Assembly: GCF_003003885.1 (NCBI RefSeq)
Contig: NZ_PVWN01000003.1
Location: 136,520-168,519, forward strand
From: Chlorogloea sp. CCALA 695
GTDB taxonomy: Bacteria > Cyanobacteriota > Cyanobacteriia > Cyanobacteriales > Chroococcidiopsidaceae
DNA length: 32,000 nt
Reading direction: 5' to 3'
Part shown: positions 4,610 through 27,513 of the stretch, in pieces
Numbering within the stretch: the first letter of the stretch is position 1
Layout: the number at the start of each line of letters is the position of its first letter
The notes under the pieces: model-generated
What the model was told of the DNA's origin: nothing
The model's input: the letters and a program-made list of their open reading frames with translations, nothing else
Databases searched by the model: none
Translations under genes and position numbers: made by a program

Positions 4610-5365
4610 ATGTCACCAAACAAGTTTAAGTTTCCAGTAAAAAGTTTGAGTTTAGTTGTCGGCGCGGCTTTGATGCTCGGACAAAATAGCCTAATAGCTA
4701 ATGCTCAAACCCCCGCCGATGTAGTGGTCGATACTGGCTCCAACGGTGGCTCTAATAGCGGCTCTAATAGCGGCACAAACCCTATTTACGATCGCAATAC
4801 TCGTTTTGCTTGCGAGTCTACTAGCGGTCAATACACCGTGATGTACTTCCCCGAAAGCCAACCCAATCAATCTTTTGCTTGGGCAACTCCTTCAGCTTTA
4901 GGCGGTGGGTGGAGTCCTCAAAAACGTTGCAACGAAATTGCTAGAAGATTAGAGCAGTATAGACCAGACGGCTTAATTGAACTAACTACCAGTGTCGAAA
5001 ATGGCTACAATACCGTTTGCGTAACTACCGAGCAAGTTCCCACTTGTCGGATTGTTTTAACTGTACCCCCCGGACAAGATCCTTTAACTACCCGCGATCG
5101 CGTTTTTGAAAATTTGACTGTAGCCGATAGCGGACAGCAAACTCAAGGAGTTTATACCTACTCCGCCGGACGAGGAAACTCTCAAGTAGACCAACTAATA
5201 AATAGAGGGAGAGCGATTTTAGGCGGCTCAAATAATAGCCAACAGAGTAATGCTATCAATCTGCGACCATTTTTAGATCGCGCTGATGGCGGAACGGGTG
5301 CAATGCTAAATAACGGCGTACCAGCAAAAACCCAACGCCAGCTAAAACCTGGTAGTTTCCGTTAG
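4610..5365 (+). CDS. Secreted COP23-like (circadian oscillating protein) domain protein
   Basis: 251 aa with a signal peptide (KSLSLVVGAALMLGQNSLIANAQ) and a GSNS low-complexity linker. The Cys-containing core FACE..GQYTVMY..W..P..RC..IA.R...NGYNTVCV...C matches my recollection of the COP23 family. Confidence 0.55.
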   Translation: MSPNKFKFPVKSLSLVVGAALMLGQNSLIANAQTPADVVVDTGSNGGSNSGSNSGTNPIYDRNTRFACESTSGQYTVMYFPESQPNQSFAWATPSALGGGWSPQKRCNEIARRLEQYRPDGLIELTTSVENGYNTVCVTTEQVPTCRIVLTVPPGQDPLTTRDRVFENLTVADSGQQTQGVYTYSAGRGNSQVDQLINRGRAILGGSNNSQQSNAINLRPFLDRADGGTGAMLNNGVPAKTQRQLKPGSFR

Positions 5366-13030: not shown

Positions 13031-13115
13031 TCGTCCGCCACAGAATACAACTGTTGTATTTTACAGCTTTACTCAACCTACTGCTGTTTCCGTGGCAGTT
13101 TCTTCTAGTTTGCTA

Positions 13116-13144
13116 TGTGACACATCGTCCGTAGACTGATAGTC
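13116..13144 (+). promoter_or_regulatory. C-box operator pair upstream of the controller (C) gene
   Basis: TGTGACACATCGTCCGTAGACTGATAGTC. The proximal half is a perfect GACT-N3-AGTC C-box (13134-13144) and the distal half is GACACATCGTC. It ends 22 bp upstream of the C-gene ATG. Confidence 0.7.
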
Positions 13145-13166
13145 ATTAAACTTTCACAATCAGCAG

Positions 13167-13415
13167 ATGAATGGAGCAAAAAAAAAGATTCTTGCTGCCT
13201 TGGGTCAACTTGTTAAGCAGCGCCGAGTAGCATTGAAAATTTCTCAAGAAGAACTAGGGCTACGCGCTAACTTAGATCGAACATACATTTCTGGAGTAGA
13301 ACGAGGCTTACGCAACCCTTCTTTAACGGCTCTTACCAGCCTTGCTAGTGGATTAGGTATTACTGTTGCAAATCTTCTGGACAATTTAGAGATAGAAGTG
13401 GAAAAGATAAAGTGA
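13167..13415 (+). CDS. XRE-family HTH controller (C) protein of an R-M system
   Basis: 82 aa with HTH ISQEELGLRANLDRTYISGVERGLRNPSL. Its stop overlaps the next ORF start (GTGA), and a C-box lies upstream. Confidence 0.8.
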   Translation: MNGAKKKILAALGQLVKQRRVALKISQEELGLRANLDRTYISGVERGLRNPSLTALTSLASGLGITVANLLDNLEIEVEKIK

Positions 13416-13940
13416 GTAAGGGAACTTTAGCAGAAACGATTAAATCGCAACTAAAAGCAGACTCAAGCCAATATAAAGTCTTTAATCTTCTATCCGATCA
13501 AAAATGGCATTGTCGGCAATGTGAGGGAAAACAAATAGCTTCAGGTCAGTATGCTGGTGGTGGCGGAATCCAAGGTTTACAACGCGGGGGAACAAAGCGC
13601 CGATCATCGGTTTCCAATGGAGCGATGGAGAGAAAGTGAACCACCACACCTTAGTTCTATGAGTGAGAATGAAATAAAAAAAAAGTTTCAGTTATTGAAA
13701 AAAGATGCGTCTGGCAATCATAATCTTTTAAAATCAAGAAGTTGCGAACGCTGCATTAAAACAGACAATAGAGGTACGCCCTTTAACATCAAGTTTTGGT
13801 ACGAAGGCGGCGAAAAATGGTCTTCGAGCCACAAAAAAGGTGCGGAAGCTGAAGCGGGTTGTGTAGGATGTGGTTGGTATGATTTTGCCGCTTGGCGCAA
13901 CGCTCTTAATCAAAAACTATCTTCTCCTCACAATGATTGA
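13412..13940 (+). pseudogene. Putative restriction endonuclease gene, apparently split by a frameshift
   Basis: Two overlapping ORFs in different frames (13412-13639 and 13551-13940) together fill the C-to-M interval. The first is coupled to the C gene. Cys pairs are present (WHCRQCEG, CERC, CVGCG). A G5 run lies at 13586-13590 within the overlap. Confidence 0.45.
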
Positions 13941-15087
13941 CAACAACTTGAGTTGAAGATGCGATCGCATTCAAATTAGGTATGAGCGCATAACCTATAC
14001 ACTCGGCTAGCCGGGGAGGTACAGCATTACCAATTTGCCACATTGCCTTTTTCATTGAACCCGCAAAAATAAAACTATCGGGAAATGTTTGAAATCGAGC
14101 CATTTCACGGGCAGAAATTACGCGGTTAAGGTACGGATGGATGTGAGTACCGCCGTGATTTTCCTTAATAGTCATGCTAGGTTTGCCTGGATACTGGCGT
14201 TTAAAAGCATCAACATAGGTTTCGTACAATGAACCGCCTGGAGGAACTTTTGCCAGTCGTTCCATGTATTCTTGTGAATGTCGAGTCCACTGATGGTTTA
14301 TTTCAGGAATAGGAGTATAGGCTGGAAGATCAAAAATAGCTGACTCAATAGGTTTGTAGTTTTCCATCGCTAATTGAGCTTTCGGGTATGGGTTGCTTTT
14401 TCCAAATCTGTTAGCAATAAAAATTGCTCTGGGGCGAATTTGTGGTAATCCATAATCCGCAGATTCAAGAATGGCAATAGAAATATGGGGATAACCAATG
14501 GCTGCAAAAGCGTCACAAATGGCTTTTTTGACAGCGCCATTTTTAATAGTCAAAATCCCCGGTACATTTTCCATGACAACATACCAAGGTCGAATTTCTG
14601 CAACAATGCGGATAAATTCTTGAAATAAACGATTGCGATTGTCCTCTGGATTGCGTTTTCCGGCAACAGAGAAACCTTGACACGGCGGGCCTCCTACCAC
14701 AAGATGGACTTCAGTAGAAAGAAGATCGCCCTGCCAATTTTTGGGATTGAAGGTTTCTATGTCACCACAAAAATGATGGCATTCTTGAAAGTTTCTTGTA
14801 TAAGTTTCTGAAGCAACTGGGTTAACTTCTACACTCGCTACTGGTTTAAATCCTGCTGTTAGTAAGCCTTGGGTCATGCCTCCTGCACCACAGAAAAGAT
14901 CGACAAATGTATAGTTAATCATTGGATTAACAGGCGATGCAACGTCTACAAATATTTTGGATGTGTCGTAGTTATTTGCATCTAATTCGCGTTTAATGCG
15001 TTCGTAACGACCCAACTTTGCTTTCTTTTGCTTCTTAATGATGTCTTCTTTGATTTTAGAAAACAAAGATAGCTGTATGTTTTGCAT
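13906..15087 (-). CDS. DNA (cytosine-5)-methyltransferase
   Basis: 393 aa with motif I DLFCGAGGMTQG, motif IV GGPPCQGFS, motif VI MENVPG, motif VIII QIRPRAIF and motif X GNAVPP. Convergent with the C-R operon, with 3' ends overlapping. Confidence 0.95.
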   Translation of the reverse strand: MQNIQLSLFSKIKEDIIKKQKKAKLGRYERIKRELDANNYDTSKIFVDVASPVNPMINYTFVDLFCGAGGMTQGLLTAGFKPVASVEVNPVASETYTRNFQECHHFCGDIETFNPKNWQGDLLSTEVHLVVGGPPCQGFSVAGKRNPEDNRNRLFQEFIRIVAEIRPWYVVMENVPGILTIKNGAVKKAICDAFAAIGYPHISIAILESADYGLPQIRPRAIFIANRFGKSNPYPKAQLAMENYKPIESAIFDLPAYTPIPEINHQWTRHSQEYMERLAKVPPGGSLYETYVDAFKRQYPGKPSMTIKENHGGTHIHPYLNRVISAREMARFQTFPDSFIFAGSMKKAMWQIGNAVPPRLAECIGYALIPNLNAIASSTQVVVNHCEEKIVFD

Positions 15088-15112
15088 TGATGTTGTAATA
15101 GATATGCTTTAT

Positions 15113-15134
15113 TGTGACACATCGTCTACATGAC
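15113..15134. promoter_or_regulatory. C-box-like half operator in the methyltransferase promoter region
   Basis: TGTGACACATCGTCTACATGAC shares 14 identical nt (TGTGACACATCGTC) with the distal C-box at 13116. It lies 26-47 bp upstream of the M start codon (15087). Confidence 0.55.
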
Positions 15135-15188
15135 CTCAAGAAAGTATTGAAAGGCTAGTTTGTCAGGTCTTGATCTAGATGTCGGAAT

Positions 15189-15220
15189 TGTTAACAATTA
15201 GCGATCGCTAATTGTTAACA
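15189..15220. repeat. 32-bp perfect palindrome centred on a HIP1 site
   Basis: TGTTAACAATTAGCGATCGCTAATTGTTAACA. Every one of the 16 mirrored pairs is complementary. It sits between the comM stop and the M-gene promoter. Confidence 0.9.
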
Positions 15221-15262
15221 GTAACTTGAAAGGGTTAAAAAACTGTTTTTGAAAACTCACAC

Positions 15263-16726
15263 TTATTGCATTCGGTCGATAGTTCGGTACTGCACAGCCT
15301 CCGCAACGTGGCTTGTAAGTAAATTTTCTTCCCCGGCTAAGTCGGCAATAGTTCTTGCTACTTTAAGGATGCGATCGCTTGCTCTAGCTGATAGACCGAG
15401 TTTACGAATCGCTACTTCTAATAAATTGCGGCTAGAATCATCAAGCTGACACCACTGCTGTAAATGGCGGCTTTGCATCGCGGCATTGCAAAGTAGGTTT
15501 TTTTCTGCCTTAAAACGATTGTAAGCCATGTCGCGGGCTTGCTTGACGCGGATACGGACAGGTTCGGAGGCTTCTCCCCTAGGTTGAGCGGTAATTTCTT
15601 CAGGCTTTAATCGATTAACCGCAACTTGCAAATCGATTCTGTCCATCAACGGCCCAGAAAGTTTTGCCCAATATTGTTCTCTTTGCCTAGGTGAACAACT
15701 GCAAGCTTGAATAGTGTCGCCAAAATAGCCGCAGGGACAAGGGTTTGTGCTGGCAATTAAAGTAAACTGTGCTGGAAACATCACCGATTGGCGAGTACGT
15801 GACACTGTTACATAGCCGTCTTCTAAAGGCTGGCGGAGAAATTCTAATACATCGCGCTTAAATTCTGTAAGCTCATCCAAAAAAAGTATACCCCGGTGGG
15901 CTAAAGATATCTCTCCAGGACGCGGAAAACTACCGCCGCCAACTAGCGCTGGGCCAGAGGCGGAATGGTGCGGACTGCGAAAGGGGCGATCGCGTACCAA
16001 CAATCCACGATTTTTTAATAACCCAGCGACAGAATGAACTTGAGTAACTTCTAAAGACTCCTCAAAACTCAAAGGTGGCAAAATGCCCGGTAAACGCCTA
16101 GCAAGCATAGTTTTTCCACTCCCCGGCGGCCCCACAAAAATTAAATTATGCCCTCCCGCCGCCGCTATCTCTAAGGCTCTACGAGCATGAACTTGTCCTT
16201 TGACATCTTTTAAATCTGCACTATTTACTAGCGACGTTACTAAGATTGTTTCATCTAGCTTTACTGGCTCATAACGCTCTGGTTGATTTAAAAAAGTTGC
16301 TACTTCTGCTAAATATTTGAAACCATATACATTTAATCCGGCAACTACCGCCGCTTCTTGGGCATTGTCAAAAGGTACAACTAAGCTAGTAATCCCTAGT
16401 TTTTTTGCCGCCGCCGCAATAGGTAAAACTCCCGCCACCGATCGCAATGTCCCATCAAGGGAAACTTCGCCTAAAAATAAATGATCTCCCAATAACTGAG
16501 CGCTCACCTGCTCGGAAGCTGCCATAATGCCTACACTAATTGGTAAGTCAAAGCTCGGCCCCTCTTTGCGTAAGTCCGCCGGAGTTAAGTTAATAATGAT
16601 TTTTCGCAGAGGAAAAGCATAACCAGCATTTTTCAGCGCGGCTTTTACCCTTTCGCGGGATTCTTGGACGGCGGTATCGGGCAAACCTACAAGCACTATT
16701 GCTGGTAAACCGCCTGATACATCAAC
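15263..16726 (-). pseudogene. comM: comM/yifB (Mg-chelatase-like AAA+ ATPase), 3' part from codon 22/23 onward, severed by the CAST insertion
   Basis: The ORF has a Lon-protease-like N-domain (GLPDTAVQESRERVKAAL), Walker A (GPPGSGKT) and a ChlI-like C-terminus. The first 11 codons of the tracked ORF (MSQRQTISHCT, TTG start) are encoded by the transposon end, not by comM. Confidence 0.9.
16722..16726. repeat. Target-site duplication copy 1 (TCAAC)
   Basis: TCAAC lies immediately outside TGTACAGTGAC. An identical pentamer is at 27446-27450, just outside the other terminus. Confidence 0.8.
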
Positions 16727-16940
16727 TGTACAGTGACTAATTGTTTGTCGTTGGGACAAATTGTTGTCATCTGATAAAGCCTTATACAGCAGACATTGTA
16801 GCTATTTAATATCATATGGTCAATTCATTAGTAGTGACATAATAAATGTCATTTTCTATGATCTTGACAAGTTAACTGTCGCTTTAAGAATTGGGGAAAA
16901 GTTTTGTATATTTTCATAATGACAAATTGACTGTCGCTTT
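16727..16940. repeat. tnsB-proximal transposon end with about 5 TnsB-binding-type repeats
   Basis: TGTACAGTGACTAATTGTTTGTCGTT, GGGACAAATTGTTGTCAT, GTGACATAATAAATGTCAT (about 16833), TTGACAAGTTAACTGTCGCTTT (about 16864) and ATGACAAATTGACTGTCGCTTT (about 16919). Confidence 0.8.
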
Positions 16941-16953
16941 TCAAACAGTTAAG

Positions 16954-16968
16954 ATAACATTATGTGTT
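16954..16968. promoter_or_regulatory. CvkR-type operator upstream of tnsB
   Basis: ATAACATTATGTGTT fits the palindromic AnnACATnATGTnnT motif recalled for CvkR. It matches the cas12k-proximal site at 14 of 15 nt and ends 17 bp before the tnsB ATG. Confidence 0.6.
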
Positions 16969-16984
16969 TATAAAGTTTGCTTTT

Positions 16985-18739
16985 ATGAGCAGAGAGGAAA
17001 GTTTTGATTTGACTGTTCATACCCTAGAAATCCCTGGGAAAGACATACCAATAGCAGATAACACACCCTCTGAAACTAATGTAATTGTGACAAATCTCTC
17101 GGAGGAAGCTCAACTTAAGCTAGAAGTCTTAAAAAGTTTGATCGAACTGTGCGATCGCACTACCTATGGGCAGAAGTTGCAGGAGGCGGCTGGAAAACTA
17201 GGTGTATCGGTGCGAACTGTGCAAAGGCTAGTCAAAAAGTGGGAGCAGGATGGCGTAGCTGGACTCACTCAAACTGGCAGGGCTGATAAAGGAAAACATC
17301 GAATTGGTGAGTTTTGGGAAACCTTCATCCTCAAAACCTATCGGGAGGGTAATTAGGGTAGTAAACGCATGACCCCCAAACAAGTTGCTCTTAGAGTCCA
17401 GGCTAAAGCCCATGCGCTAGAGGACGTTAAGCCGCCTAATTACAAAACTGTATTACGAGTATTAGCACCCATCTTAGAAAAACAAGAAAAAACTAAGAGT
17501 ATCCGCAGCCCTGGTTGGAGAGGGACAACACTTTCAGTTAAAACTCGTGAAGGAAAAGATTTATCCGTTGATTACAGCAACCATGTTTGGCAATGCGACC
17601 ACACCCGTGTAGATGTATTACTGGTAGATCAACATGGTGAACTCCTAAGCCGTCCTTGGTTAACAACAGTAATCGATACTTATTCACGCTGCATTATGGG
17701 TATTAATTTAGGCTTTGATGCACCTAGCTCTGAGATTGTGGCATTAGGATTGCGTCATGCTATTTTGCCCAAATTGTACGGTGCAGAATACAAGTTACAT
17801 TGCGAGTGGGGAACCGATGGTAAGCCAGAACATTTTTACACTGATGGCGGTAAAGATTTTCGCTCTAACCACTTGAGTCAGATTGCAACGCAATTAGGTT
17901 TTGTTTGTCATTTACGCGATCGCCCTTCTGAAGGTGGAGTAGTCGAACGTCCCTTCAAAACATTAAATGACCAGCTATTTTCAACACTTCCTGGCTATAC
18001 AGGTTCTAATGTACAAGAACGCCCAAAGGATGCAGAGAAGGATGCAAGACTAACTCTGAGAGAACTGGAACAGCTACTTGTGGGTTACATAGTGAATCGT
18101 TACAACCAAAGTATTGATGCTCGTATGGGCGATCAAACTAGATTTGGGCGTTGGGAAGCAGGATTGCCTACAGTGCCAGTATCAATATCAGAACGAGAGT
18201 TGGATATCTGTTTAATGAGGCAGTCACGGCGTACTGTGCAAAGAGGTGGTTACTTGCAGTTTCAGAACTTGATGTATCGAGGGGAATATCTGGAAGGTTA
18301 TGCAGGGGAAACTGTGAACTTAAGGTTTAACCCTAGAGATATTACAACGATTCTGATTTATCGTCAAGAGAAAAATCAGGAAGTATTTCTCACTCGCGCT
18401 CATACTCAAGGTTTGGAGACAGAGAAACTGTCATTAGATGAGGCTGAGGTAGCAAGCCGCAGACTTCGCGCCGCAGGTAAAACTATCAGTAATCAATCAT
18501 TATTGCAAGAAGTTCTTGAACGTGATGCTTTTGTGACCAGTAAGAAAAGCCGTAAGGATCGGCAAAAGTTGGAGCAAGCTGTTTTACGACCTACTCCGAT
18601 CAATGAAAGTAAAACAGAGTTTTTGTCTTTTCAAATAGTTGAACCGGATGATTTGGAGTCAACGGCTGAAATTAAATTCACTTGCGAAGAACTTGAGGTG
18701 TGGGACTATGACCAACTTCGTGAAGAATATGGGTTTTAG
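16985..18739 (+). pseudogene. tnsB: TnsB DDE transposase (V-K CAST) interrupted by one in-frame TAG
   Basis: The two tracked ORFs (16964-17356 and 17369-18739) are in the same frame, reading ...TYREGN-TAG(17354-17356)-GSKRMTPKQVALRV.... The likely true start is the ATG at 16985 (MSREESFDLTVHTLEIPG). The HTH N-domain, DDE core (WQCDHTRVD, YTDGGKDFRS, ERPFKTLN) and C-terminal tail are all present. Confidence 0.85.
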
Positions 18740-18742
18740 ACA

Positions 18743-19573
18743 ATGATAGAAGCTCAAGACTTCGCCAATCAATTGGGTGGAGTGAAACCAGATGATGAGT
18801 GGTTACAAATTGAAATTACTCGTCTCAAGGGAAAGAGTATTGTTCCATTACATCAAGTAAAAACTCTCCACGATTGGCTAGATGGAAAGCGCAAATCCAG
18901 ACAATCCTGTCGAGTAGTTGGGGAATCAAGAACTGGCAAGACTGTTGCCTGTGATGCCTATAGGTATAGACAAAAACCACAGCAAGAAGTTGGTAGACCC
19001 CCGATCGTACCTGTTGTTTATATTCAGCCTCCACAAAAATGTGGCTCTAAGGATTTATTTAAGGAGATGATTGAGTACCTTAAGTTTCGTGCAACCAACG
19101 GGACTGTTTCAGATTTTCGTGGTAGAGCGATGGAGGTACTCAAGGGGTGTGGGGTAGAAATGTTGATTATTGATGAAGCAGATCGTCTTAAGCCTGAAAC
19201 GTTTGCTGAGGTGCGAGATATTTATGACAAGTTAGGCATTGCTGTAGTATTAGTAGGAACAGACCGCTTGGAGGCAGTGATCAAGCGGGATGAACAAGTT
19301 TATAACCGTTTTCGGGCTTGCCATCGCTTTGGTAAGTTATCGGGGAAAGAATTCCAAGATACAGTGCAAGCTTGGGAAGAGAGGGTTTTAAAGCTGCCTT
19401 TATCTTCTAATTTAACTAGCAAGGATATGTTACGAATTCTCACATCGGCAACTGGAGGTTACATTGGTCGGCTAGATGAAATTCTCAGGGACGCAGCGAT
19501 TCGGTCGTTATCCAAGGGGTTTAAAAAGATTGATAAGGCTGTTTTACAGGCAGTTGCTCAGGAGTATAAGTAA
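18743..19573 (+). CDS. tnsC: TnsC AAA+ ATPase (V-K CAST)
   Basis: 276 aa with Walker A GESRTGKT and Walker B LIIDEADRL. High similarity to my recollection of ShCAST TnsC. Tightly coupled to tnsB and tniQ. Confidence 0.93.
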   Translation: MIEAQDFANQLGGVKPDDEWLQIEITRLKGKSIVPLHQVKTLHDWLDGKRKSRQSCRVVGESRTGKTVACDAYRYRQKPQQEVGRPPIVPVVYIQPPQKCGSKDLFKEMIEYLKFRATNGTVSDFRGRAMEVLKGCGVEMLIIDEADRLKPETFAEVRDIYDKLGIAVVLVGTDRLEAVIKRDEQVYNRFRACHRFGKLSGKEFQDTVQAWEERVLKLPLSSNLTSKDMLRILTSATGGYIGRLDEILRDAAIRSLSKGFKKIDKAVLQAVAQEYK

Positions 19574-20079
19574 TGACAGCACCAGATATTAAACCTTGGC
19601 TTTTCATTGTAGAACCATATCTAGGGGAAAGCCTAAGCCATTTTTTAGGTCGATTTAGACGTGCTAACCATTTGTCCCCTGCTGGGCTGGGTAATTTAGC
19701 AGAAATTGGTGCTGTAGTGGCACGTTGGGAAAGATTTCATTTTAACCCTCGCCCTAGTCAGCAAGAATTGAGTGCGATCGCATCTGTTGTAGAAGTGGAT
19801 GCCAAGACGTTAGCCGAGATGCTGCCACCTGCTGGGGTGGGTATGCAGCATGAACCCGTTAGGTTATGTGGTGGTTGTTATGCAGAAATACCTTGTCACC
19901 GGATTGCGTGGCAGTTTAAGGAGACGGGGAAATGCGATCGCCACAATTTGCGTTTACTGTCTAAGTGTCCCAAGTGCGAGGCTAGATTCAAAATTCCAGC
20001 TTTATGGGAGGATGGATGCTGCAATCGCTGTCGGTTGCCGTTTGGTAATATGGTAAGTTGTCAAAAGTTAGCGCTCTAA
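19573..20079 (+). CDS. tniQ: TniQ (short V-K type)
   Basis: 168 aa. PWLFIVEPYLGESLSHFLGRFRRANHLS plus Cys-rich zinc-ribbon motifs (CGGCY, CDRH, CPKC, CCNRC). The ATGA-type overlap with tnsC supports coupling. Confidence 0.92.
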   Translation: MTAPDIKPWLFIVEPYLGESLSHFLGRFRRANHLSPAGLGNLAEIGAVVARWERFHFNPRPSQQELSAIASVVEVDAKTLAEMLPPAGVGMQHEPVRLCGGCYAEIPCHRIAWQFKETGKCDRHNLRLLSKCPKCEARFKIPALWEDGCCNRCRLPFGNMVSCQKLAL

Positions 20080-20099
20080 GCTAATTAAAGAAAGCCAGT

Positions 20100-22151
20100 T
20101 CAACTGTCATTCAGAGAAAAGGCATAGTTACCATCTGGAAATCTGATAACTGGAACCCAGAAAGGTACTCCATCCCAACCACCTTGAGCATCAACGTTAC
20201 CTCTTAATCTAGTCATCAACAAAGTAGGATAATTGGGGTCAACACCATAAGGTATGTTCCCTGCATCACCAGGCATAACGCTACCAAGTTGGGTATAGTT
20301 CCTACTAGCGCTTTTCTTTAAATTTGAGTCTCTGTTAATAATTAATAATATACCTGTGTTTTGATATCTGGGATTATCTCGCAGAGTAAAAACAGCTTGC
20401 CTGATCAAATCATCATTCCAAGCACCACTTGATTCAGGCGTTGCATAGTGAAACTTAAGAATCTCTAACATCTCATCAATTGTTGCGTTATATGGCTGTT
20501 TCAGACTAGGATACTTAGCTATAGACAGAAGATTATCAAGTTCCTGAGTTTGGTTACTCAAAGTATTAGGTTCAGATATTGGTAGGGATGGAAAATACTG
20601 CTTTCCTCCTTGATAAGTTACCAAATTAACCGTATTTTCATTTAATACATTACGGCGAGTCGGTTTTATTCCTTTCGCTACCAAAGGAATCACCTGAATA
20701 GGTAAATTAGTTGCCTGACACTGCTCTCTAACTAAATTATCACTGACATGAATATCTACAAATCTTTGAGCTAAATGAACTGGTAAATAAATACGAGTTG
20801 CTGGTAGTTCATTTTGACGGTATCCATACATTCTTGCGTGCTGTAAAACTGTATCCATCTGAGGTTGTTGAGCATCTCTACCATAGTAAGTAACTAGAAG
20901 ATCCTTGACAGTCACACCCCGCCCTATCTTTGTACCACCTATGTAAAGGGTATGTTTTCTTGCTGGAGTAGGTTTAATTCCTTCACCACTATCAGAGTTA
21001 ATTTCTATAATTTCTGTAGAGGTTATTCGTCTTGCTGTTTCTACTAAAACATCATGAAATGGTGGAACATTTACAAAAGTTTGTTGTAAATCATCGTAAG
21101 CATTTTGTAATTGTGTTCTGAGCGCAGAAGATACACCTATTATTGGGTCATTAGGATTTTGTCTAAGCTGGTTCATCAATTCCTGCTTAAATTTATCAAC
21201 TAATTCTGCTGCTAAATGATGCTGTTCCTGTCTAAAGCTAGTATGCAGCAGATATGTATAGTTTTTTCGATTTTCCTGTATCCTTAAAATTGCTGCCCCT
21301 AGAAAAAATACCAACATTGACTGTATCACAGTATCAGGAATACGATTGCTAGTCTGCAACCTACCAAGCTCAATGTCAGGTACTAAGCGAATATGATTTG
21401 AATTACTAAAGTTACTGTCACCAAAAAAATAGTTACCACCAACGTAACCTGTACCAGGTATAGTAACAACTACAAAATTTGGTCTAAAAGCACTTTGACT
21501 ATCTTGTAATAATAATGATTGAGGAGTAGCGGTAGTTTGCAAGTATGTATGAGAATTAAGATAAGTTCTTAAATCAACAATTGCTCGATTTACTGCGCTT
21601 GTAGGTTTGTTTAGATCATTAATATTAGTATCTAAACTAGCTTGATCTGCCTCATCGTCAATAATGATAACTGATTGAGCTTGCCAGTTTGATATCCGAA
21701 CAATATTTAAAGCACCTCGCAAATGGGTTGGATGTTTAGGACAAACTAAAGCTAGTAGTAAACCAGGAGTAGCTCTTGAATTTTGTTTAATTTCTGTCTT
21801 ACCAAAAACTTGAAAACTATCTAATGCTCCTTTGATTCTTTCAAGCGTCTGCTCATAGATATCATTTAGATTTGATGTCATAACTACGAAATTATTAAAG
21901 CCGTTATCTGCGGCTAATGCCATCGTTGTCAGAATAACGGATGTTTTCCCGCTTTGGATATGTCCATAAATTAATCCTTTCACAGAACCAATTTTTGCAG
22001 GCTCTAAACATCTTTCTAATACTTCAATTGCCGTCTTAAGTATTAACTCAAAATCAGCATATGAAATATTTTCTTCATCATGTAGATACTCTTTGAGATT
22101 ACTAATATTATCTCCTTCTAAAGTATTTATCTGTGCCATATTATACCTCAT
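20100..22151 (-). CDS. Z1-domain ATPase/helicase-like protein (methylase-associated putative restriction component), CAST cargo
   Basis: 683 aa with Walker A GHIQSGKTS, DEAD-like IIIDDEADQAS, TTATPQS, and the Z1 signature GGTKIGRGVTVKDLLVTYYGR...DTVLQHARMYGYR. Immediately downstream of a C5-MTase in the same orientation. Confidence 0.75.
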   Translation of the reverse strand: MRYNMAQINTLEGDNISNLKEYLHDEENISYADFELILKTAIEVLERCLEPAKIGSVKGLIYGHIQSGKTSVILTTMALAADNGFNNFVVMTSNLNDIYEQTLERIKGALDSFQVFGKTEIKQNSRATPGLLLALVCPKHPTHLRGALNIVRISNWQAQSVIIIDDEADQASLDTNINDLNKPTSAVNRAIVDLRTYLNSHTYLQTTATPQSLLLQDSQSAFRPNFVVVTIPGTGYVGGNYFFGDSNFSNSNHIRLVPDIELGRLQTSNRIPDTVIQSMLVFFLGAAILRIQENRKNYTYLLHTSFRQEQHHLAAELVDKFKQELMNQLRQNPNDPIIGVSSALRTQLQNAYDDLQQTFVNVPPFHDVLVETARRITSTEIIEINSDSGEGIKPTPARKHTLYIGGTKIGRGVTVKDLLVTYYGRDAQQPQMDTVLQHARMYGYRQNELPATRIYLPVHLAQRFVDIHVSDNLVREQCQATNLPIQVIPLVAKGIKPTRRNVLNENTVNLVTYQGGKQYFPSLPISEPNTLSNQTQELDNLLSIAKYPSLKQPYNATIDEMLEILKFHYATPESSGAWNDDLIRQAVFTLRDNPRYQNTGILLIINRDSNLKKSASRNYTQLGSVMPGDAGNIPYGVDPNYPTLLMTRLRGNVDAQGGWDGVPFWVPVIRFPDGNYAFSLNDS

Positions 22152-22180
22152 TAAGTTATTAGAAATTTAGTAAATAAAAG

Positions 22181-23563
22181 CTATAGCTTTAGTATGTATC
22201 GCGCTATCGCTAGTGTTAAAAGAAAACTAACAGTATTAGCTAACTGCTGTTGCTTGTGCGCTAAACCCAGACCTTTAGAATTATCAGTAGTGCCACAAAA
22301 AGTAAACCAATCAGGAAGAGACTGTAGACGACTGGCTTCCCGTAATGATAATCCTCTATTTTGCTCTGGATGAATTATCATGCTTTTACGATAATTACCA
22401 ATTGTGATTGAAGGTTCATCCCATCTTAACCGTCTGTAGATATTGCTATGGGTATTTTCTATGTCAGAATAATTAGTCATCATGTGTCGAATATTCTTCC
22501 AGTTTCCACCCGCCGGAATGTGTCTATACCTATCAATTACATAATCCGCCTGTTTTGAAACAATGTGACCTTCAATAGTATCTAGGCTTGCCATTTGGCG
22601 CATTTGTTGCAAAAACGGATTCGAGTTTAATTGTTCCTGTGTAGGTTCGTCGTACTCTTGAACAACTCGGCTTTCACCATTCTCAACCACAGGTAGACTG
22701 GCAATTGCTTCTTTGACTGTCACATAGTTGTATCTACCTATTGCTCCATGTGTAGGTAAGGGAAATGCGCCCCATTCACCAAAACTATCAACTTTATAAC
22801 CTAAACTTTGGTGCAATGCCAATAAAAAAAATCTATTCCGGTGTTGTGGAACTCCATACCAAGCAGCATCTAAAACTGCGGGGAAAAGAATATACCCAGC
22901 ATCCGCAAATTTTCTGGCAATATAATCAACTACCGTTAATTTGTGCTTATTTTTGCCTTTGTTAGAACGAGGTGTCCATAAAATACCCTGTACATTTTCC
23001 AAAAGAATTGCTTTCGGTGCTAGTTCTAAGGAACATTCGATAAAGTATTCAACGAGTTGATTATAAGTATTCTTAGCATTCCAATTACTTCGATTGGATT
23101 GTGAAAAACCTTGGCAAGGTGTTCCACCAATAACAAGATCGACACCATCTGCTCTTTTAACGCTTTCATATACCAGTTGGCAATCGTGTTTTTTGGTTAA
23201 ATCGATAGGGATAAAGTTGTTAGGAATACTGTCTTGGATGCTTTTAGTTGAGTGATTATAAAAATGTTTATAATTAGTTTCGAGACTTCTTAAATATATC
23301 GGATTAATTTCGGCAGATTTTATAATTCTGAAGCATTTTTTTTTGTCCCCAGCCATCAGAAATCCAACCCCCATTCCGCCTGCTCCAGCAAAAAGCTCAA
23401 CTACACGTACATCATTTCTGGAGGCTGTGAGCGCACCATGTAGAGCAATATCTTGCTTTACTGGAGACAAAGAGCTATTAAGTTCCTGATCTTGTTCTTT
23501 AGATAATTTAATATTAGCTCTATAACGAACCCTCGACCCTGGATTGCAAGCTGGCTTGATCAT
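22181..23563 (-). CDS. DNA (cytosine-5)-methyltransferase, CAST cargo
   Basis: 460 aa with motif I ELFAGAGGMGVGF, motif IV GGTPCQGFS, motif VI LLENVQG and motif VIII QHRNRFF. Visibly AT-richer than the flanking host genes. Confidence 0.9.
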   Translation of the reverse strand: MIKPACNPGSRVRYRANIKLSKEQDQELNSSLSPVKQDIALHGALTASRNDVRVVELFAGAGGMGVGFLMAGDKKKCFRIIKSAEINPIYLRSLETNYKHFYNHSTKSIQDSIPNNFIPIDLTKKHDCQLVYESVKRADGVDLVIGGTPCQGFSQSNRSNWNAKNTYNQLVEYFIECSLELAPKAILLENVQGILWTPRSNKGKNKHKLTVVDYIARKFADAGYILFPAVLDAAWYGVPQHRNRFFLLALHQSLGYKVDSFGEWGAFPLPTHGAIGRYNYVTVKEAIASLPVVENGESRVVQEYDEPTQEQLNSNPFLQQMRQMASLDTIEGHIVSKQADYVIDRYRHIPAGGNWKNIRHMMTNYSDIENTHSNIYRRLRWDEPSITIGNYRKSMIIHPEQNRGLSLREASRLQSLPDWFTFCGTTDNSKGLGLAHKQQQLANTVSFLLTLAIARYILKL

Positions 23564-23667
23564 AAAATATTTTTTTTAAGCAAGGAATTGAATTATAAGA
23601 CAGTTTGCATCTGGGCTAAATACCCACGTACAAGTTGAAATTAGTATCAGGATTACAGTATTAACAC

Positions 23668-24120
23668 TTATTTAACATAACTTTGGAGATTATCCCTTAA
23701 TTGTTGATGCACGTGATCGCACCAAAGAGGAATCACAGTTTGCCCCTGACAAAGTGCTTCTAGCGCTACTTGCTTGTCAAACTCTGCTATTCGCAAAAGT
23801 TGTCCCTGCGATCGCCTGGCTAAAAACATCAGTCGCTTCATCTGTTTTTGGGTAACAGACGGCTCGAATAACCAAGGTTCTTCCTCACGTAATGTCTCTA
23901 AAGCTGCATGGCAAACCTCAAAATTTAAACCGATTGACAGCAATTGTTCCATCACTGCCAGTGCCAATAAGTCAGCCTTGGAATAGTAAACATTACGACC
24001 CTTACCAGTCGTGTTGACCGTAGGTACAATAATTCCCTTCTCACGCCAATACTGTAACTGTCGCCGAGAGCAATTAGTAATTTTTGCTGCTTCTGTGCTG
24101 GTATAGAACTTTTCTTCCAT
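23668..24120 (-). CDS. cvkR: MerR-family repressor of V-K CAST (CvkR-like)
   Basis: 150 aa with a MerR HTH (YTSTEAAKITNCSRRQLQYWREKGII). Divergent from cas12k with an 80-bp intergenic region carrying the palindromic operator. Confidence 0.8.
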   Translation of the reverse strand: MEEKFYTSTEAAKITNCSRRQLQYWREKGIIVPTVNTTGKGRNVYYSKADLLALAVMEQLLSIGLNFEVCHAALETLREEEPWLFEPSVTQKQMKRLMFLARRSQGQLLRIAEFDKQVALEALCQGQTVIPLWCDHVHQQLRDNLQSYVK

Positions 24121-24166
24121 AAAACCATCCTATAGAAGCATTTCCTGAAACACACTAAATTTTTAA

Positions 24167-24181
24167 ACAACATTATGTGTT
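24167..24181. promoter_or_regulatory. CvkR-type operator in the cvkR-cas12k divergent promoter region
   Basis: ACAACATTATGTGTT fits AnnACATnATGTnnT and ends 20 bp before the cas12k ATG. Confidence 0.65.
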
Positions 24182-24200
24182 TTTGTGATATTGTATTTTC

Positions 24201-26117
24201 ATGAGTCAAAGTACCGTTCAATGCCGCTTAATTGCCAGTACATCCACTCGTCAACAACTTTGGAAGTTGATGGCACAATTAAATACACCCCTAATTAACG
24301 AAATACTTCAACAGCTTAATAAACATCCAGACTTTGAGAAATGGCGGAAAAATGGCAAACTGCCATCAACTGTTGTTAGCCAACTTTGCCATCCCCTGAA
24401 AACGGATCTTCGCTTTGTAGGTCAGCCCAGTCGTTTGTATACATCAGCAATTCATGTTGTCGATTACATCTACAAATCTTGGTTAGCAATCCATAAACGT
24501 TTACAGCAGCAGCTAGATGGCAAAATACGCTGGCTAGAAATGCTCAACAGTGATGCTGAATTAGTAGAAACTAGCTTTTGTAGCTTAGAGGAGATTCGTA
24601 CCAAAGCTGCTGATATTTTGGCAATGACTACGCCAGAATCTGACGCTAATGCTCCTTTAATTGAAAGAAGAAAGACTAAGAAATCAAAAAAATCATCTAC
24701 TTCAAATTCTGACCGGGGATTATCTCATAAATTATTTGATGCTTACCAAAATACCGAAGACAGACTCCGTCGTAGCGCCATCAGCTATCTGCTGAAAAAT
24801 GGCTGTAAACTGAAGGACAAAGAAGATCCGGAACAATTTGCTAAACGCCGTCGTAAGCTAGAAATCCAAATTCAAAGGCTGACAGAAAAGCTAACAAGTC
24901 GAATTCCTAAAGGTCGAGATTTGGCTAATGCCAAATGGTTGGAAACACTCTTTACTGCTACAACTACTGTTCCAGAAGACAATGCTGAAGCCAAACGCTG
25001 GCAAGATATTTTATTAACCAGATCGAGTCTCCTCCCCTTTCCCCTGGTCTTTGAAACAAACGAAGACCTTGTTTGGTCAACAAATGAAAAAGGTCGGCTA
25101 TGTGTCCACTTCAATGGCTTGAGCGATTTAACTTTTGAAGTGTACTGCGATAGTCGTCAACTGCATTGGTTTAAACGCTTCTTAGAAGACCAACAGACTA
25201 AACGTAAAAGCAAAAATCAGCATTCTAGTGGCTTGTTTACCCTTAGAAATGGTCGTTTAGCTTGGCTTGAAGGCAAAGGTAAAGGCGAACCTTGGGAACT
25301 TCACCACTTAACTCTCTACTGCTGTGTTGATACTCGCCTGTGGACTACTGAAGGCACAGAACAAGTGCGCCAGGAAAAAACAAATGAGATTACTAAATTT
25401 ATTACAAAGATGAAGGAGAAGACAGACCTGAGTGTCACTCAGCAAGCTTTTGTTCAGCGTAAACAATCAACACTTACTCGAATAAATAATTCCTTTGAGC
25501 GTCCCAATAAACCTGTTTACCAAGGTCAATCAAACATTTTGGTTGGAGTAAGCTTAGGACTAGAGAAACCTGCCACAGTAGCGGTAGTAGATGCGCTCAC
25601 CAACAAAGTCTTGGCTTGCCGGAGTACCAGACAACTACTTAATGAAAATTACGAGCTTCTAAATCGCCAAAGACGACAACAGCAATCTTTATCCCACGAA
25701 CGCCACAAAGCCCAAAAAAGCTTCTCTCCCAACCAACTTGGAGCTTCTGAGTTAGGGCAGTATGTAGACAGATTATTGGCTAAAGAAATTGTAGCGATCG
25801 CACAAAGCTATTTTGCAGGCAGTATAGTATTGCCTAAGCTGGGTGATATGCGAGAGATTATTCAATGTGAAATTCAAGCCATAGCCGAGGCAAAATGTCC
25901 TGGTTCCAAAGAAATTCAAAAAAATTATGCCAAGCAATATCGAGTAAACGTCCATCAATGGAGCTATGGCAGATTACTTCAAAACATTCAAAGTAAAGCT
26001 ACTCAGATGGGAATTGTGATTGAAGAAGGTAAACAACCTGTTCGTGGTAGTCCCCAAGACAAAGCACAAGAATTAGCACTCTCTGCTTACAAGCTGCGCC
26101 TAGCTAGGCAAAGTTGA
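24201..26117 (+). CDS. cas12k: Cas12k (nuclease-deficient type V-K effector)
   Basis: 638 aa. Collinear with my recollection of ShCas12k along the whole length (MSQ..Q.RLI, QQLWKLMA.LNTPLINE, GLFTLRNG, VGVSLGLEKPATVAVVDA, YRVNVH.WSYGRL). Confidence 0.95.
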   Translation: MSQSTVQCRLIASTSTRQQLWKLMAQLNTPLINEILQQLNKHPDFEKWRKNGKLPSTVVSQLCHPLKTDLRFVGQPSRLYTSAIHVVDYIYKSWLAIHKRLQQQLDGKIRWLEMLNSDAELVETSFCSLEEIRTKAADILAMTTPESDANAPLIERRKTKKSKKSSTSNSDRGLSHKLFDAYQNTEDRLRRSAISYLLKNGCKLKDKEDPEQFAKRRRKLEIQIQRLTEKLTSRIPKGRDLANAKWLETLFTATTTVPEDNAEAKRWQDILLTRSSLLPFPLVFETNEDLVWSTNEKGRLCVHFNGLSDLTFEVYCDSRQLHWFKRFLEDQQTKRKSKNQHSSGLFTLRNGRLAWLEGKGKGEPWELHHLTLYCCVDTRLWTTEGTEQVRQEKTNEITKFITKMKEKTDLSVTQQAFVQRKQSTLTRINNSFERPNKPVYQGQSNILVGVSLGLEKPATVAVVDALTNKVLACRSTRQLLNENYELLNRQRRQQQSLSHERHKAQKSFSPNQLGASELGQYVDRLLAKEIVAIAQSYFAGSIVLPKLGDMREIIQCEIQAIAEAKCPGSKEIQKNYAKQYRVNVHQWSYGRLLQNIQSKATQMGIVIEEGKQPVRGSPQDKAQELALSAYKLRLARQS

Positions 26118-26142
26118 CAGATATCCGAACCTTGATAATAGA

Positions 26143-26365
26143 ATATTTAATAGCGCCGCAGTTCATGCTGTTTACAGCCTCTGAACTGTGTTAAATGAGG
26201 GTTAGTTTGGCTGTAGCAATATAGTCTTGCTTTCTGACCCTAGTAGCTACTCACCCTGATGCTGCTGTCTTTATGACAGGATAGGTGCGCTCCCAGCAAT
26301 AAGGGCGCGGATGTACTGCTGTAGTGGCTACTGAATCACCCCCGATCAAGGGGGAACCCTCCCCA
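26143..26365 (+). ncRNA. tracrRNA of the V-K system
   Basis: ATATTTAATAGCGCCGCAGTTCATGCTG...GGATAGGTGCGCTCCCAGCAATAAGGGCGCGGATGTACTGCTGTAGTGGCTACTGAATCACCCCCGATCAAGGGGGAACCCTCC is near-identical in blocks to the ShCAST tracrRNA as I recall it. The 3' AACCCTCC is the anti-repeat for GG(C/T)GGGTT. Ends are approximate. Confidence 0.85.
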
Positions 26366-26564
26366 ATTCTTCCTTTGAAGAACTAAATTTGAGGCAAAAT
26401 TTCTCAGATACCCGCGCAAGTTCCAAATAGCTTGTCCAGTCTGGCTTTTATCGTTTTTTTATCAAAAAGTGATTCTTAAGGCTGAGGCTCAGATAGTAAA
26501 TTGAGGGACATTCGCGCTTGTGACATCTAGAAACATTGCCCCACAGTATTTTAAGCTTGGTGGT

Positions 26565-26978
26565 GTCACAACAACCCTCCAGGTACTCAGGCGGGTTGAA
26601 AGCGACAGTAAATATTAGTATTTTTATATAAAAAAGTCACAACAACCCTCCAGGTACTAGGCGGGTTGAAAGTTAAATCTACTTATTCTAAGTTATTAAG
26701 GGATACGTCACAACAACCCTCCAGGTACTAGGCGGGTTGAAAGGAAAAGCTGGTATGCCCCAGAGGTGACACTAGAGTCACAACAACCCTCCAGGTACTA
26801 GGCGGGTTGAAAGTTGTTTCTACTGGAAATAAAGGAATCACCCCGCAAGTCACAACAACCCTCCAGGTACTAGGCGGGTTGAAAGTAATAATTTCGCAAG
26901 CAAACAGTGGAGCCTGGATGTCAAACAAGCCTCCAGGTACTAGGTGGGTTGAAAGAGCAAGAGTATGGATTGAAGCCA
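26565..26978 (+). CRISPR. V-K CRISPR array: 6 repeats, 5 regular spacers plus a terminal homing spacer
   Basis: Repeat GTCACAACAACCCTCCAGGTACTAGGCGGGTTGAAAG at 26565-26602 (38 nt, one extra C), 26636-26672, 26707-26743, 26777-26813 and 26849-26885. A diverged repeat GTCAAACAAGCCTCCAGGTACTAGGTGGGTTGAAAG is at 26920-26955. Spacers are 33, 34, 33, 35 and 34 nt. The terminal spacer starts at 26956. Confidence 0.95.
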
Positions 26979-27332
26979 AACTCAAAATATCCCTCGATAA
27001 TAGCTTTAAAGGCTGCAAACTTTCGTTAGTGTGCAGAACGAACAGCAGGTCAAGGAACAGGTAAGTCTTAAACTAAAAGGGATGGCAATGGAAAAGAATA
27101 TGCCGAAAAGAAAGCAACATGAGTTCAAAATGTTTCTCTGCAATTTGTAATAGTTGACAGTCAAATTCTACATTTGGTGTTTGCTTATTTATCCAGATAA
27201 TATACGTGGAATGTAGCTACCAATAACTGAGGACTATTACGACTAAGAATTTTTTGCAACACAACCTTGAGCAAAGTTCGTTTAAAGTTAAAGAGTGATA
27301 CGTTGACATCATCGCTACAGTCTCTGTAAGTT

Positions 27333-27445
27333 AATGACATTAATCCGTCACTGACACTTAAAAGACATTAATTTGTCTCGACGACAATTAAATAGTAATA
27401 ATGACACTAATGTGTCACCGACGACAAATAATTAGTCACTGTATA
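27333..27445. repeat. CRISPR-proximal (target-proximal) transposon end with about 4 TnsB-binding-type repeats
   Basis: Read inward from the terminus: TATACAGTGACTAATTATTTGTCGTCG, GTGACACATTAGTGTCAT, GAGACAAATTAATGTCTTT, GTGACGGATTAATGTCAT. The layout resembles what I recall as the ShCAST LE. Confidence 0.8.
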
Positions 27446-27450
27446 TCAAC
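27446..27450. repeat. Target-site duplication copy 2 (TCAAC)
   Basis: Identical to 16722-16726. The base just inside the element at this end (A, 27445) equals the host base preceding the other TSD copy (A, 16721), so a 6-bp duplication cannot be excluded. Confidence 0.8.
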
Positions 27451-27513
27451 CTCTACACCTACTTTGACGGCATCAATCCCAACAATTGCCGCACTCCATA
27501 CTCTTGCTAACAT
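27451..27513 (-). pseudogene. comM: comM/yifB 5' fragment (start codon plus first ~21 codons)
   Basis: The minus strand reads ATG TTA GCA AGA GTA TGG AGT GCG GCA ATT GTT GGG ATT GAT GCC GTC AAA GTA GGT GTA GAG (MLARVWSAAIVGIDAVKVGVE). It continues in frame through the TSD (GTTGA) into VDVSGGLP at 16726. Confidence 0.88.

Follow-up and report, generated by a model that had tools for sequence, protein, structure and literature searches.

A type V-K CRISPR-guided transposon within the start of comM in Chlorogloea sp. CCALA 695, matched by a guide at the end of its own array

The closest described relatives of the element reported here are ShCAST and other type V-K CASTs, which insert according to a small set of rules. 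The PAM is 5'-GTN-3', insertion falls 60-66 bp downstream of it, and the functional R-loop is 17 nt long and capped by TniQ (PMC9798831). The element takes a target-left-right orientation, and 63 bp has been given as the PAM offset (PMC10370016). Guides to att sites match over 17 nt and usually lie at or beyond the end of the array, and the att sites recorded for V-K elements comprise tRNAs, mutS, mutL, ffs, a nuclease and an sRNA (Hsieh & Peters 2021 preprint). The gene comM is known as a target of other Tn7-like elements. In Acinetobacter baumannii, Tn6022/AbaR elements use an att site whose occupation inactivates comM (PMC11406308), and their targeting is protein-guided (TniQ + TnsF/Orf3, with TnsE for plasmids) and proceeds without CRISPR. 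Type I-B1 CASTs with a comM guide (Hsieh & Peters, NAR 2023) inhabit cyanobacteria, target the comM coding sequence through the last guide of their array and inactivate the gene, and they do so with Cascade I-B, an ATG PAM and TnsA. The element described below resembles both groups in interrupting comM and shares with the I-B1 CASTs a cyanobacterial host and a comM guide in last array position; in contrast to them it has Cas12k, a GTT PAM and no TnsA.

The guide/target pair itself has been on record since 2021. Row 57 of Table S1 in the Hsieh & Peters 2021 preprint lists the same spacer and protospacer, AATGTT in the PAM field and one mismatch, together with a right end and a tnsB entered as 'pseudo'. 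The att_gene is given as "Unknown noncoding region", and neither a left end nor a duplication was called, probably because the left end starts with TAT. The present analysis newly identifies comM as the target and adds the left end, the duplication and the empty sites. None of the papers searched links Cas12k or V-K with comM. The catalogue has 28 entries labelled "Unknown noncoding region"; one of them is thereby explained, and others may also be remnants of split genes.

In Chlorogloea sp. CCALA 695, the start of comM is occupied by a ShCAST-like CRISPR-guided transposon of 10.7 kb, which our analysis places at 16727-27445. Coordinates refer to the window, the whole 32,000-nucleotide stretch of contig PVWN01000003.1 that was analyzed, and equal the contig coordinate minus 136519. 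The genes run in the order tnsB-tnsC-tniQ, cargo, divergent merR, cas12k, tracrRNA region and array, the same as in ShCAST (tnsB-tnsC-tniQ ... merR / cas12k-tracrRNA-array). On the plus strand, tnsB (16985-18739; Pfam rve/Mu-transpos_C) is a pseudogene, cut into ORFs of 130 aa and 456 aa by an in-frame TAG at 17354-17356, where TnsB relatives presumably carry Lys. It is followed on the same strand by tnsC (18743-19573; Pfam TniB and AAA_22) and by tniQ (19573-20079; Pfam TniQ), whose 168-aa product is of the short V-K type. Domain searches identified two cargo genes on the minus strand, one for a Z1-domain protein (20100-22151) and one for a C-5 cytosine DNA methyltransferase (22181-23563), and the same pair occurs in a related element on locus L082. 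A gene for a MerR-type regulator (23668-24120, minus strand; Pfam MerR_1) is divergent from cas12k; we call it CvkR-like after CvkR, reportedly a regulator that has been described. The 638-aa product of cas12k (24201-26117, plus strand) is 100% identical to a protein named Cas12k from Chlorogloea sp. CCALA 695 and, in a homology search, 79% identical to ShCas12k. Contiguous with cas12k and conserved in loci L081-L083 is a putative tracrRNA region (26130-26365, plus strand, boundaries inferred) with the anti-repeat motifs CTTTCTGACCC (26230-26240) and AACCCTCC (26355-26362), which we take, from the sequence alone, to be the counterpart of the ShCAST tracrRNA. No Rfam family covers this region, CRISPR-DR15 being the sole type of match obtained. 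Almost all of TniQ can be aligned with ShCAST TniQ structures (8rdu, E=2.6e-93; 7n6i, ~1e-93). Judged by this alignment and by the 79% identity of Cas12k, the element classes as a type V-K CAST and a close relative of ShCAST.

The properties of TniQ bear on one way in which the element might have reached comM without a guide. Given that comM is the protein-guided att site of Tn6022-family Tn7-like elements (PMC11406308), the gene could have been recognized by protein, through TniQ and TnsF as in Tn6022/AbaR, and the guide match would then be incidental. Yet a 168-aa V-K TniQ that matches its ShCAST counterpart almost end to end argues against an extra DNA-binding domain. Furthermore, searches of ORFs and Pfam domains within 16727-27445 returned no tnsA, tnsD, tnsE, tnsF-like or Cascade gene, and no further transposase-like domain was present among the other ORFs of at least 80 aa in that interval. 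The element has neither the Tn6022-type set (TnsA, TnsE, TniQ + TnsF selector) nor the I-B1 set (Cascade I-B, tnsA, ATG PAM), and we consider protein recognition of comM extremely improbable.

A candidate homing guide, which would make the insertion RNA-guided, is found downstream of cas12k. The array holds six 37-nt repeats (26566-26955) whose 3' ends read GGGTTGAAAG, in agreement with the V1 consensus wkrGGyGGGTTGAAAG (PMC12416283). Five of these, of sequence GTCACAACAACCCTCCAGGTACTAGGCGGGTTGAAAG, are regular and alternate with spacers (26566-26885, plus strand; Rfam CRISPR-DR15 matches). The terminal repeat (26919-26955, plus strand) is degenerate in its 5' half, with 69% identity to the reference repeat, and keeps the handle TAGGTGGGTTGAAAG, which the portion of Table S1 used here also records for other att guides. 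Downstream of it the sequence is AGCAAGAGTATGGATTGAAGCCA, and directly after it lies the att spacer AGCAAGAGTATGGATTG (26956-26972, plus strand), the last unit of the array and the spacer of Table S1 row 57. The CRISPR-DR15 matches at 26636-26885 fall on the minus strand; the functional orientation, as cas12k, the tracrRNA and the 3' handle GTTGAAAG show, is the opposite one.

The spacer pairs with its protospacer at 16 of 17 positions: the first 14 PAM-proximal nucleotides are exact, nucleotide 15 is mismatched, and 16-17 are paired. Over 23 nt the identity is 19/23, and past nucleotide 23 it drops to chance level. By chance, the search space should contain about 9e-5 matches with one mismatch or none, and shuffled sequences gave 0.15 matches across the whole window with 3 mismatches permitted. 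What the final array unit holds is, in these respects, what is expected of a dedicated att guide.

Read on the minus strand, the beginning of comM is gaaataaATG TTA GCA AGA GTA TGG AGT GCG GCA ATT, with the ATG at 27513-27511. The first-pass annotation had proposed that a GTT PAM is built from this start codon, and direct reading bears it out, since the PAM (27509-27511, minus strand) consists of the G of the ATG and the TT of Leu codon 2. The protospacer that it had put next to the PAM does lie at the start of comM, although not with the extent proposed. A 23-nt target covering codons 2-9 had been envisaged (AGCAAGAGTATGGAGTGCGGCAA, 27508-27486, spanning the last base of codon 2 through the first of codon 10), whereas the part matched by the guide is the first 17 nt, AGCAAGAGTATGGAGTG (27492-27508, minus strand), within codons 2-8. 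From the PAM to the left end there are exactly 63 bp (27508-27446), and it is the CRISPR-proximal left end that faces the protospacer.

The element ends at 16727 and 27445 were placed by terminal inverted repeats. The left, CRISPR-proximal end (27333-27445, minus strand) contains repeated TnsB-site-like motifs of the TGTACAGTGAC...TGTCGTCGGTGAC type, which we take to resemble those of ShCAST ends. It is 90% identical to the left end on L082, and its terminus is TATACAGTGAC, not TGTACAGTGAC. The right, tnsB-proximal end (16727-16960, plus strand) has the terminus TGTACAGTGAC, and its first base corresponds to the right_end value of 153246 in Table S1. The element is flanked by two copies of GTTGA, one beside the left end (27446-27450, minus strand) and one beside the right end (16722-16726, minus strand); a 5-bp duplication is also what ShCAST produces. 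A 6-bp duplication, GTTGAT, was considered and rejected, as it would make the ends asymmetric, while 5 bp gives TATACAGTGAC / TGTACAGTGAC. Outside the duplications lie the two parts of comM, both on the minus strand: a 5' fragment of codons 1-22 plus two bases of codon 23 (27446-27513) and a 3' part with the Pfam domains ChlI, Mg_chelatase and Mg_chelatase_C (15263-16721). Deleting the element and one GTTGA copy in silico restores an uninterrupted 508-aa YifB/ComM, to which intact ComM relatives from metagenome assemblies are 98-94% identical.

Empty versions of the site exist among these relatives. In four of them (L120-L123) comM is intact within the same HIT(-)/comM(+) synteny, the PAM is GTT, and GTTGA occurs once, at nt 59-63 past the PAM. 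In L120 and L121 about the first 70 nt equal the restored site and the protospacer is identical, and in L122 and L123 the protospacer differs by one base (position 4). The four empty sites therefore prove that an insertion took place, and they establish exactly where its boundaries are and that 63 bp separate the PAM from the left end.

To place this geometry among natural insertions, the detection rule of Hsieh & Peters was run on loci fetched by Cas12k, which yielded 19 further natural guide/target pairs. A GTN PAM was present in 20/20 pairs, the window included, and the left end pointed towards the target in 19/19 of the other loci. The PAM-to-left-end distance was 54-64 bp in 18 of these 19, the remaining locus having tandem ends, and 57-65 bp in the 22 rows of Table S1 that were used, except for one row at 74 (mode 63). 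Pooled, these ~40 other insertions, drawn in part from Table S1, are all GTN, with distances of 54-65 bp, a mode of 63 and the outlier at 74. By comparison with the 19 loci and 22 rows, the geometry of the window is completely typical. The reading of PAM, distance and orientation as ShCAST-like, made from the letters of the window in the first-pass annotation, thus agrees with the published 60-66 bp rule and with natural insertions; its coordinates were confirmed, and the interpretation is supported. Where the window departs from the other loci is in the nature of its target. In all 19, the interval between PAM and left end was judged by eye to be tRNA-like or non-coding, and a tRNA att site is typical of V-K elements without strictly defining them; here the target is codons 2-8 of comM.

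The divergence of the target can be followed through ComM. A genome-contig scan with the restored ComM provided 80 cyanobacterial comM orthologues (76-83% ComM identity), among which the peptide MLARVWSA is nearly invariant. The conserved N-terminus that had been assumed for the target is accordingly real in the protein, but not in the DNA. Codon 2 is CTN in 62/80 orthologues, which gives GCT and falls outside the GTN PAM, and GTT is kept in only 17/80 (21%). The Val codon GTA (protospacer nt 9-11) is absent from all 80, the best 17-nt match among them departs from the protospacer at 2 positions and from the guide at 3, and no orthologue at or below 85% ComM identity has the protospacer within one mismatch. 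Target changes number 0-1 at ComM identities of at least 94% and 3-4 at 90-85%. From this fast decay it follows that homing by the comM guide is confined to a narrow clade. Lack of conservation among orthologues had been named beforehand as something that would count against the reading; this is in part the case, as the DNA does vary, which limits the host range and leaves the geometry standing. The restriction agrees with the published case for RNA genes as the targets favoured by 17-nt guides (Hsieh & Peters 2021 preprint). Synonymous change abolishes PAM or seed before ComM divergence exceeds roughly 10%, in support of a V-K preference for RNA genes. All orthologues retrieved by the scan (up to 83% identity) were intact, with no further insertions among them.

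The same guide occurs in a second element. Metagenome contig QQTW01007288 (L081/L084) carries a merR-cas12k-array module whose Cas12k is 88% identical to that of the window and whose terminal guide is identical. On the same contig lie 935 bp of the flank on the HIT side of comM, at 87% identity. This flank adjoins a different Tn7-like end (TGTACATTCACAAATTAAGTGTCG; TGTACATTCACAAATTAAGTGTCGCCGTTCACAAATTAATGTCG; L081 930-1110), 6 nt before the expected comM ATG, and the module is inverted relative to the window and has an IS-like fragment after its array. Neither a left end nor a comM junction is present on QQTW01007288. The contig is a case of the comM guide being retained across diverged elements, not a second clean insertion. 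It was the only one of 36 loci to carry the guide in a metagenome scan with Cas12k, and a viral-contig scan returned no Cas12k relative. The L081 locus is rearranged or multiply invaded. Just past its comM guide, at 5054-5080, is a truncated repeat-spacer unit (GGGTTGAAAG + CTTGATTTTCTATGGGC) that may be a second, delocalised homing guide, for which a search of the contig turned up no target.

These observations help to weigh whether the comM spacer is a homing guide at all. It could be an ordinary array spacer with a chance match to the chromosome, in which case the insertion would be a one-off and comM not a maintained att site. In keeping with that, the spacer follows a full-length repeat in array register and not a truncated, delocalised unit, conservation of its DNA target does not extend past a narrow clade, and its string occurs in a single row (57) of the 282-locus cas12k catalogue. 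Against it, the unit is the last of the array and is preceded by a degenerate repeat, a position usual for att guides, and its similarity to the target stops at about nt 17-23, as in att guides, whereas a fresh spacer would be ~35 nt. Moreover, a second element, with a Cas12k diverged by 12%, has kept the identical spacer. On balance, we think an ordinary spacer improbable.

Another possibility reverses cause and effect: the element could have landed in comM in an untargeted, RNA-independent event and acquired the spacer from its flank afterwards, so that the match would result from the insertion. RNA-independent insertion into AT-rich DNA is known for ShCAST (PMC10370016), and V-K arrays are thought to gain spacers in trans (Hsieh & Peters 2021 preprint). 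A spacer taken at random from the flank would, however, rarely come with the correct PAM, strand and 63-bp spacing. In addition, this spacer sits at the array's old end, away from the leader, where a decayed repeat precedes it, and it recurs in the second, diverged element; the L081 copy points to a spacer that predates the insertion. Acquisition after landing strikes us as very improbable.

We consider it highly likely that this V-K CAST inserted into comM by means of its own dedicated homing guide. This conclusion draws on the 16/17 match at a GTT PAM, with a chance expectation of about 1e-4, and on the 63-bp spacing, the facing left end, the duplication, the restored ComM and the empty sites. 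It also draws on the recurrence of the same att spacer in the same terminal array position of the element with the 88% identical Cas12k, on the full V-K gene set without tnsA, and on the independent listing of the pair in Table S1 row 57. Several points count against dedicated homing. The guide has a mismatch at position 15, though this is common among natural homing guides; only two elements carry the guide, the second of them rearranged; so narrow a phylogenetic range of the DNA target is not usual among homing sites; and the present copy has a tnsB pseudogene and a mutated left-end terminus.

ShCAST biochemistry allows one to infer in what order the molecular events proceed and what the guide does. 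The last repeat-spacer unit would be transcribed, pair with the tracrRNA and provide Cas12k with a guide that matches comM, through its first 17 nt, immediately past the ATG. Cas12k would then read the GTT PAM that overlaps the ATG and form a 17-bp R-loop, which TniQ, with S15, would complete while nucleating a TnsC filament pointing downstream. TnsB would join the left end about 63 bp from the PAM, with duplication of the 5 bp GTTGA. The outcome is a comM split at codon 23, and hence the knock-out of a competence gene.

The copy in the window appears to have decayed. Its left-end tip (27443-27445) reads TATACA as against TGTACA at the right end, while all other left ends examined start with TGT. 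The change from TGT to TAT turns the 3'-CA of the transferred strand into 3'-TA, and the terminal CA matters for DDE transposases of the V-K CAST kind. Because of the nonsense codon in tnsB and the TAT tip, this copy is probably no longer mobile, and the element is likely to be non-autonomous. The strain has a second, apparently intact V-K CAST, located at a tRNA-Pro on PVWN01000012.1 (Table S1 row 58). Since that element has other repeats and other ends (TGTACATTCGCACATTATAT), mobilisation of the comM element in trans seems unlikely.

In its targeting the comM element follows ShCAST closely, with a GTN PAM, a distance within 60-66 bp, the left end towards the target and a 17-nt match corresponding to the 17-bp R-loop. 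It differs in what is targeted and in how the guide is kept. ShCAST homes to a tRNA gene with a truncated guide unit that stands apart from the array, whereas here the site is the 5' end of a protein-coding gene, and the guide closes the array, preceded by a repeat that is degenerate but of full length. Further differences are the nonsense codon in tnsB and the mutated tip of the left end. Closer in kind of target are the V-K CASTs at mutS and mutL (Hsieh & Peters 2021), in which a Cas12k guide is likewise directed to a coding sequence at a GTN PAM with 1-2 mismatches. Their protospacers lie in the last 25-75 nt of the gene, in contrast to codons 2-8 in comM. The left end of the mutL element consequently falls about 41 bp past the end of the gene (Table S1), which is spared, and the mutS protospacers imply the same, whereas comM is cut at codon 23. 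The insertion is therefore best described as ordinary ShCAST-like homing at an unusual, gene-disrupting and narrowly conserved target. It adds comM to the homing targets of V-K elements as a clear case in which the target gene is destroyed, with no landing just past it, and it strengthens the published view that natural transformation is shut down again and again by integrating elements.

The single mismatch of the guide, at nt 15 (window 26970 vs 27494), turns out to have company. Among 16 independent homing-guide lineages with at least one mismatch, assembled from our own loci and part of Table S1, 9/16 are mismatched at position 15 with 16-17 paired. Besides the window, the observation concerns L088, L095, L098, L100, L109 and L111 and, from that part of Table S1, rows 48, 51, 53, 115, 166, 260 and 263. 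For this partial sample, the excess at position 15 has p = 7e-8 against a uniform distribution and p = 1.5e-3 if mismatches are confined to positions 13-17. Substitutions of several kinds occur at the position in these lineages, so they are not all wobble pairs. The pattern goes unmentioned in the preprint, the 2024 review and the structural paper.

Two linked ideas follow for the wider picture, namely that a V-K lineage independently adopted comM knock-out homing and that the position-15 mismatch is a general rule and not decay. We offer them tentatively, as a reading somewhat more doubtful than probable. If V-K homing to comM is true, Tn7-like elements would have converged on comM by three routes, the protein of Tn6022, the Cascade of I-B1 and the Cas12k of V-K, with, in the last case, the PAM embedded in the start codon. 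If the position-15 rule is true, nt 15 would be left unread or deliberately unpaired as TniQ completes the 17-bp R-loop. Should the pattern hold, it would amount to a natural mutational scan of the Cas12k guide, relevant to the design of V-K tools and to the prediction of off-targets. Of the two, the position-15 pattern is the more intriguing lead, ahead of the comM homing event.

Some smaller observations concern the attachment sites themselves. At L090, L096 and L104, short extra remnants of left-end tips (TGTACAGTGACAAATT, TGTACATTCGCAAATTAAAGGTCGC) lie between the tRNA protospacer and the full left end, which suggest repeated insertions and decay at one attachment site. At comM, the interval between this gene and that for adenylosuccinate lyase is variable (window 13031-15262, L122 2206-3615, L123 2020-2173). 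In the window it contains a C-5 DNA methyltransferase gene (13906-15087) and small ORFs, in L122 a gene for an Mrr_cat/NA-iREase1 protein and a 182-aa ORF, and in L123 it is nearly empty. This variable interval beside the comM att site looks like a small defence islet.
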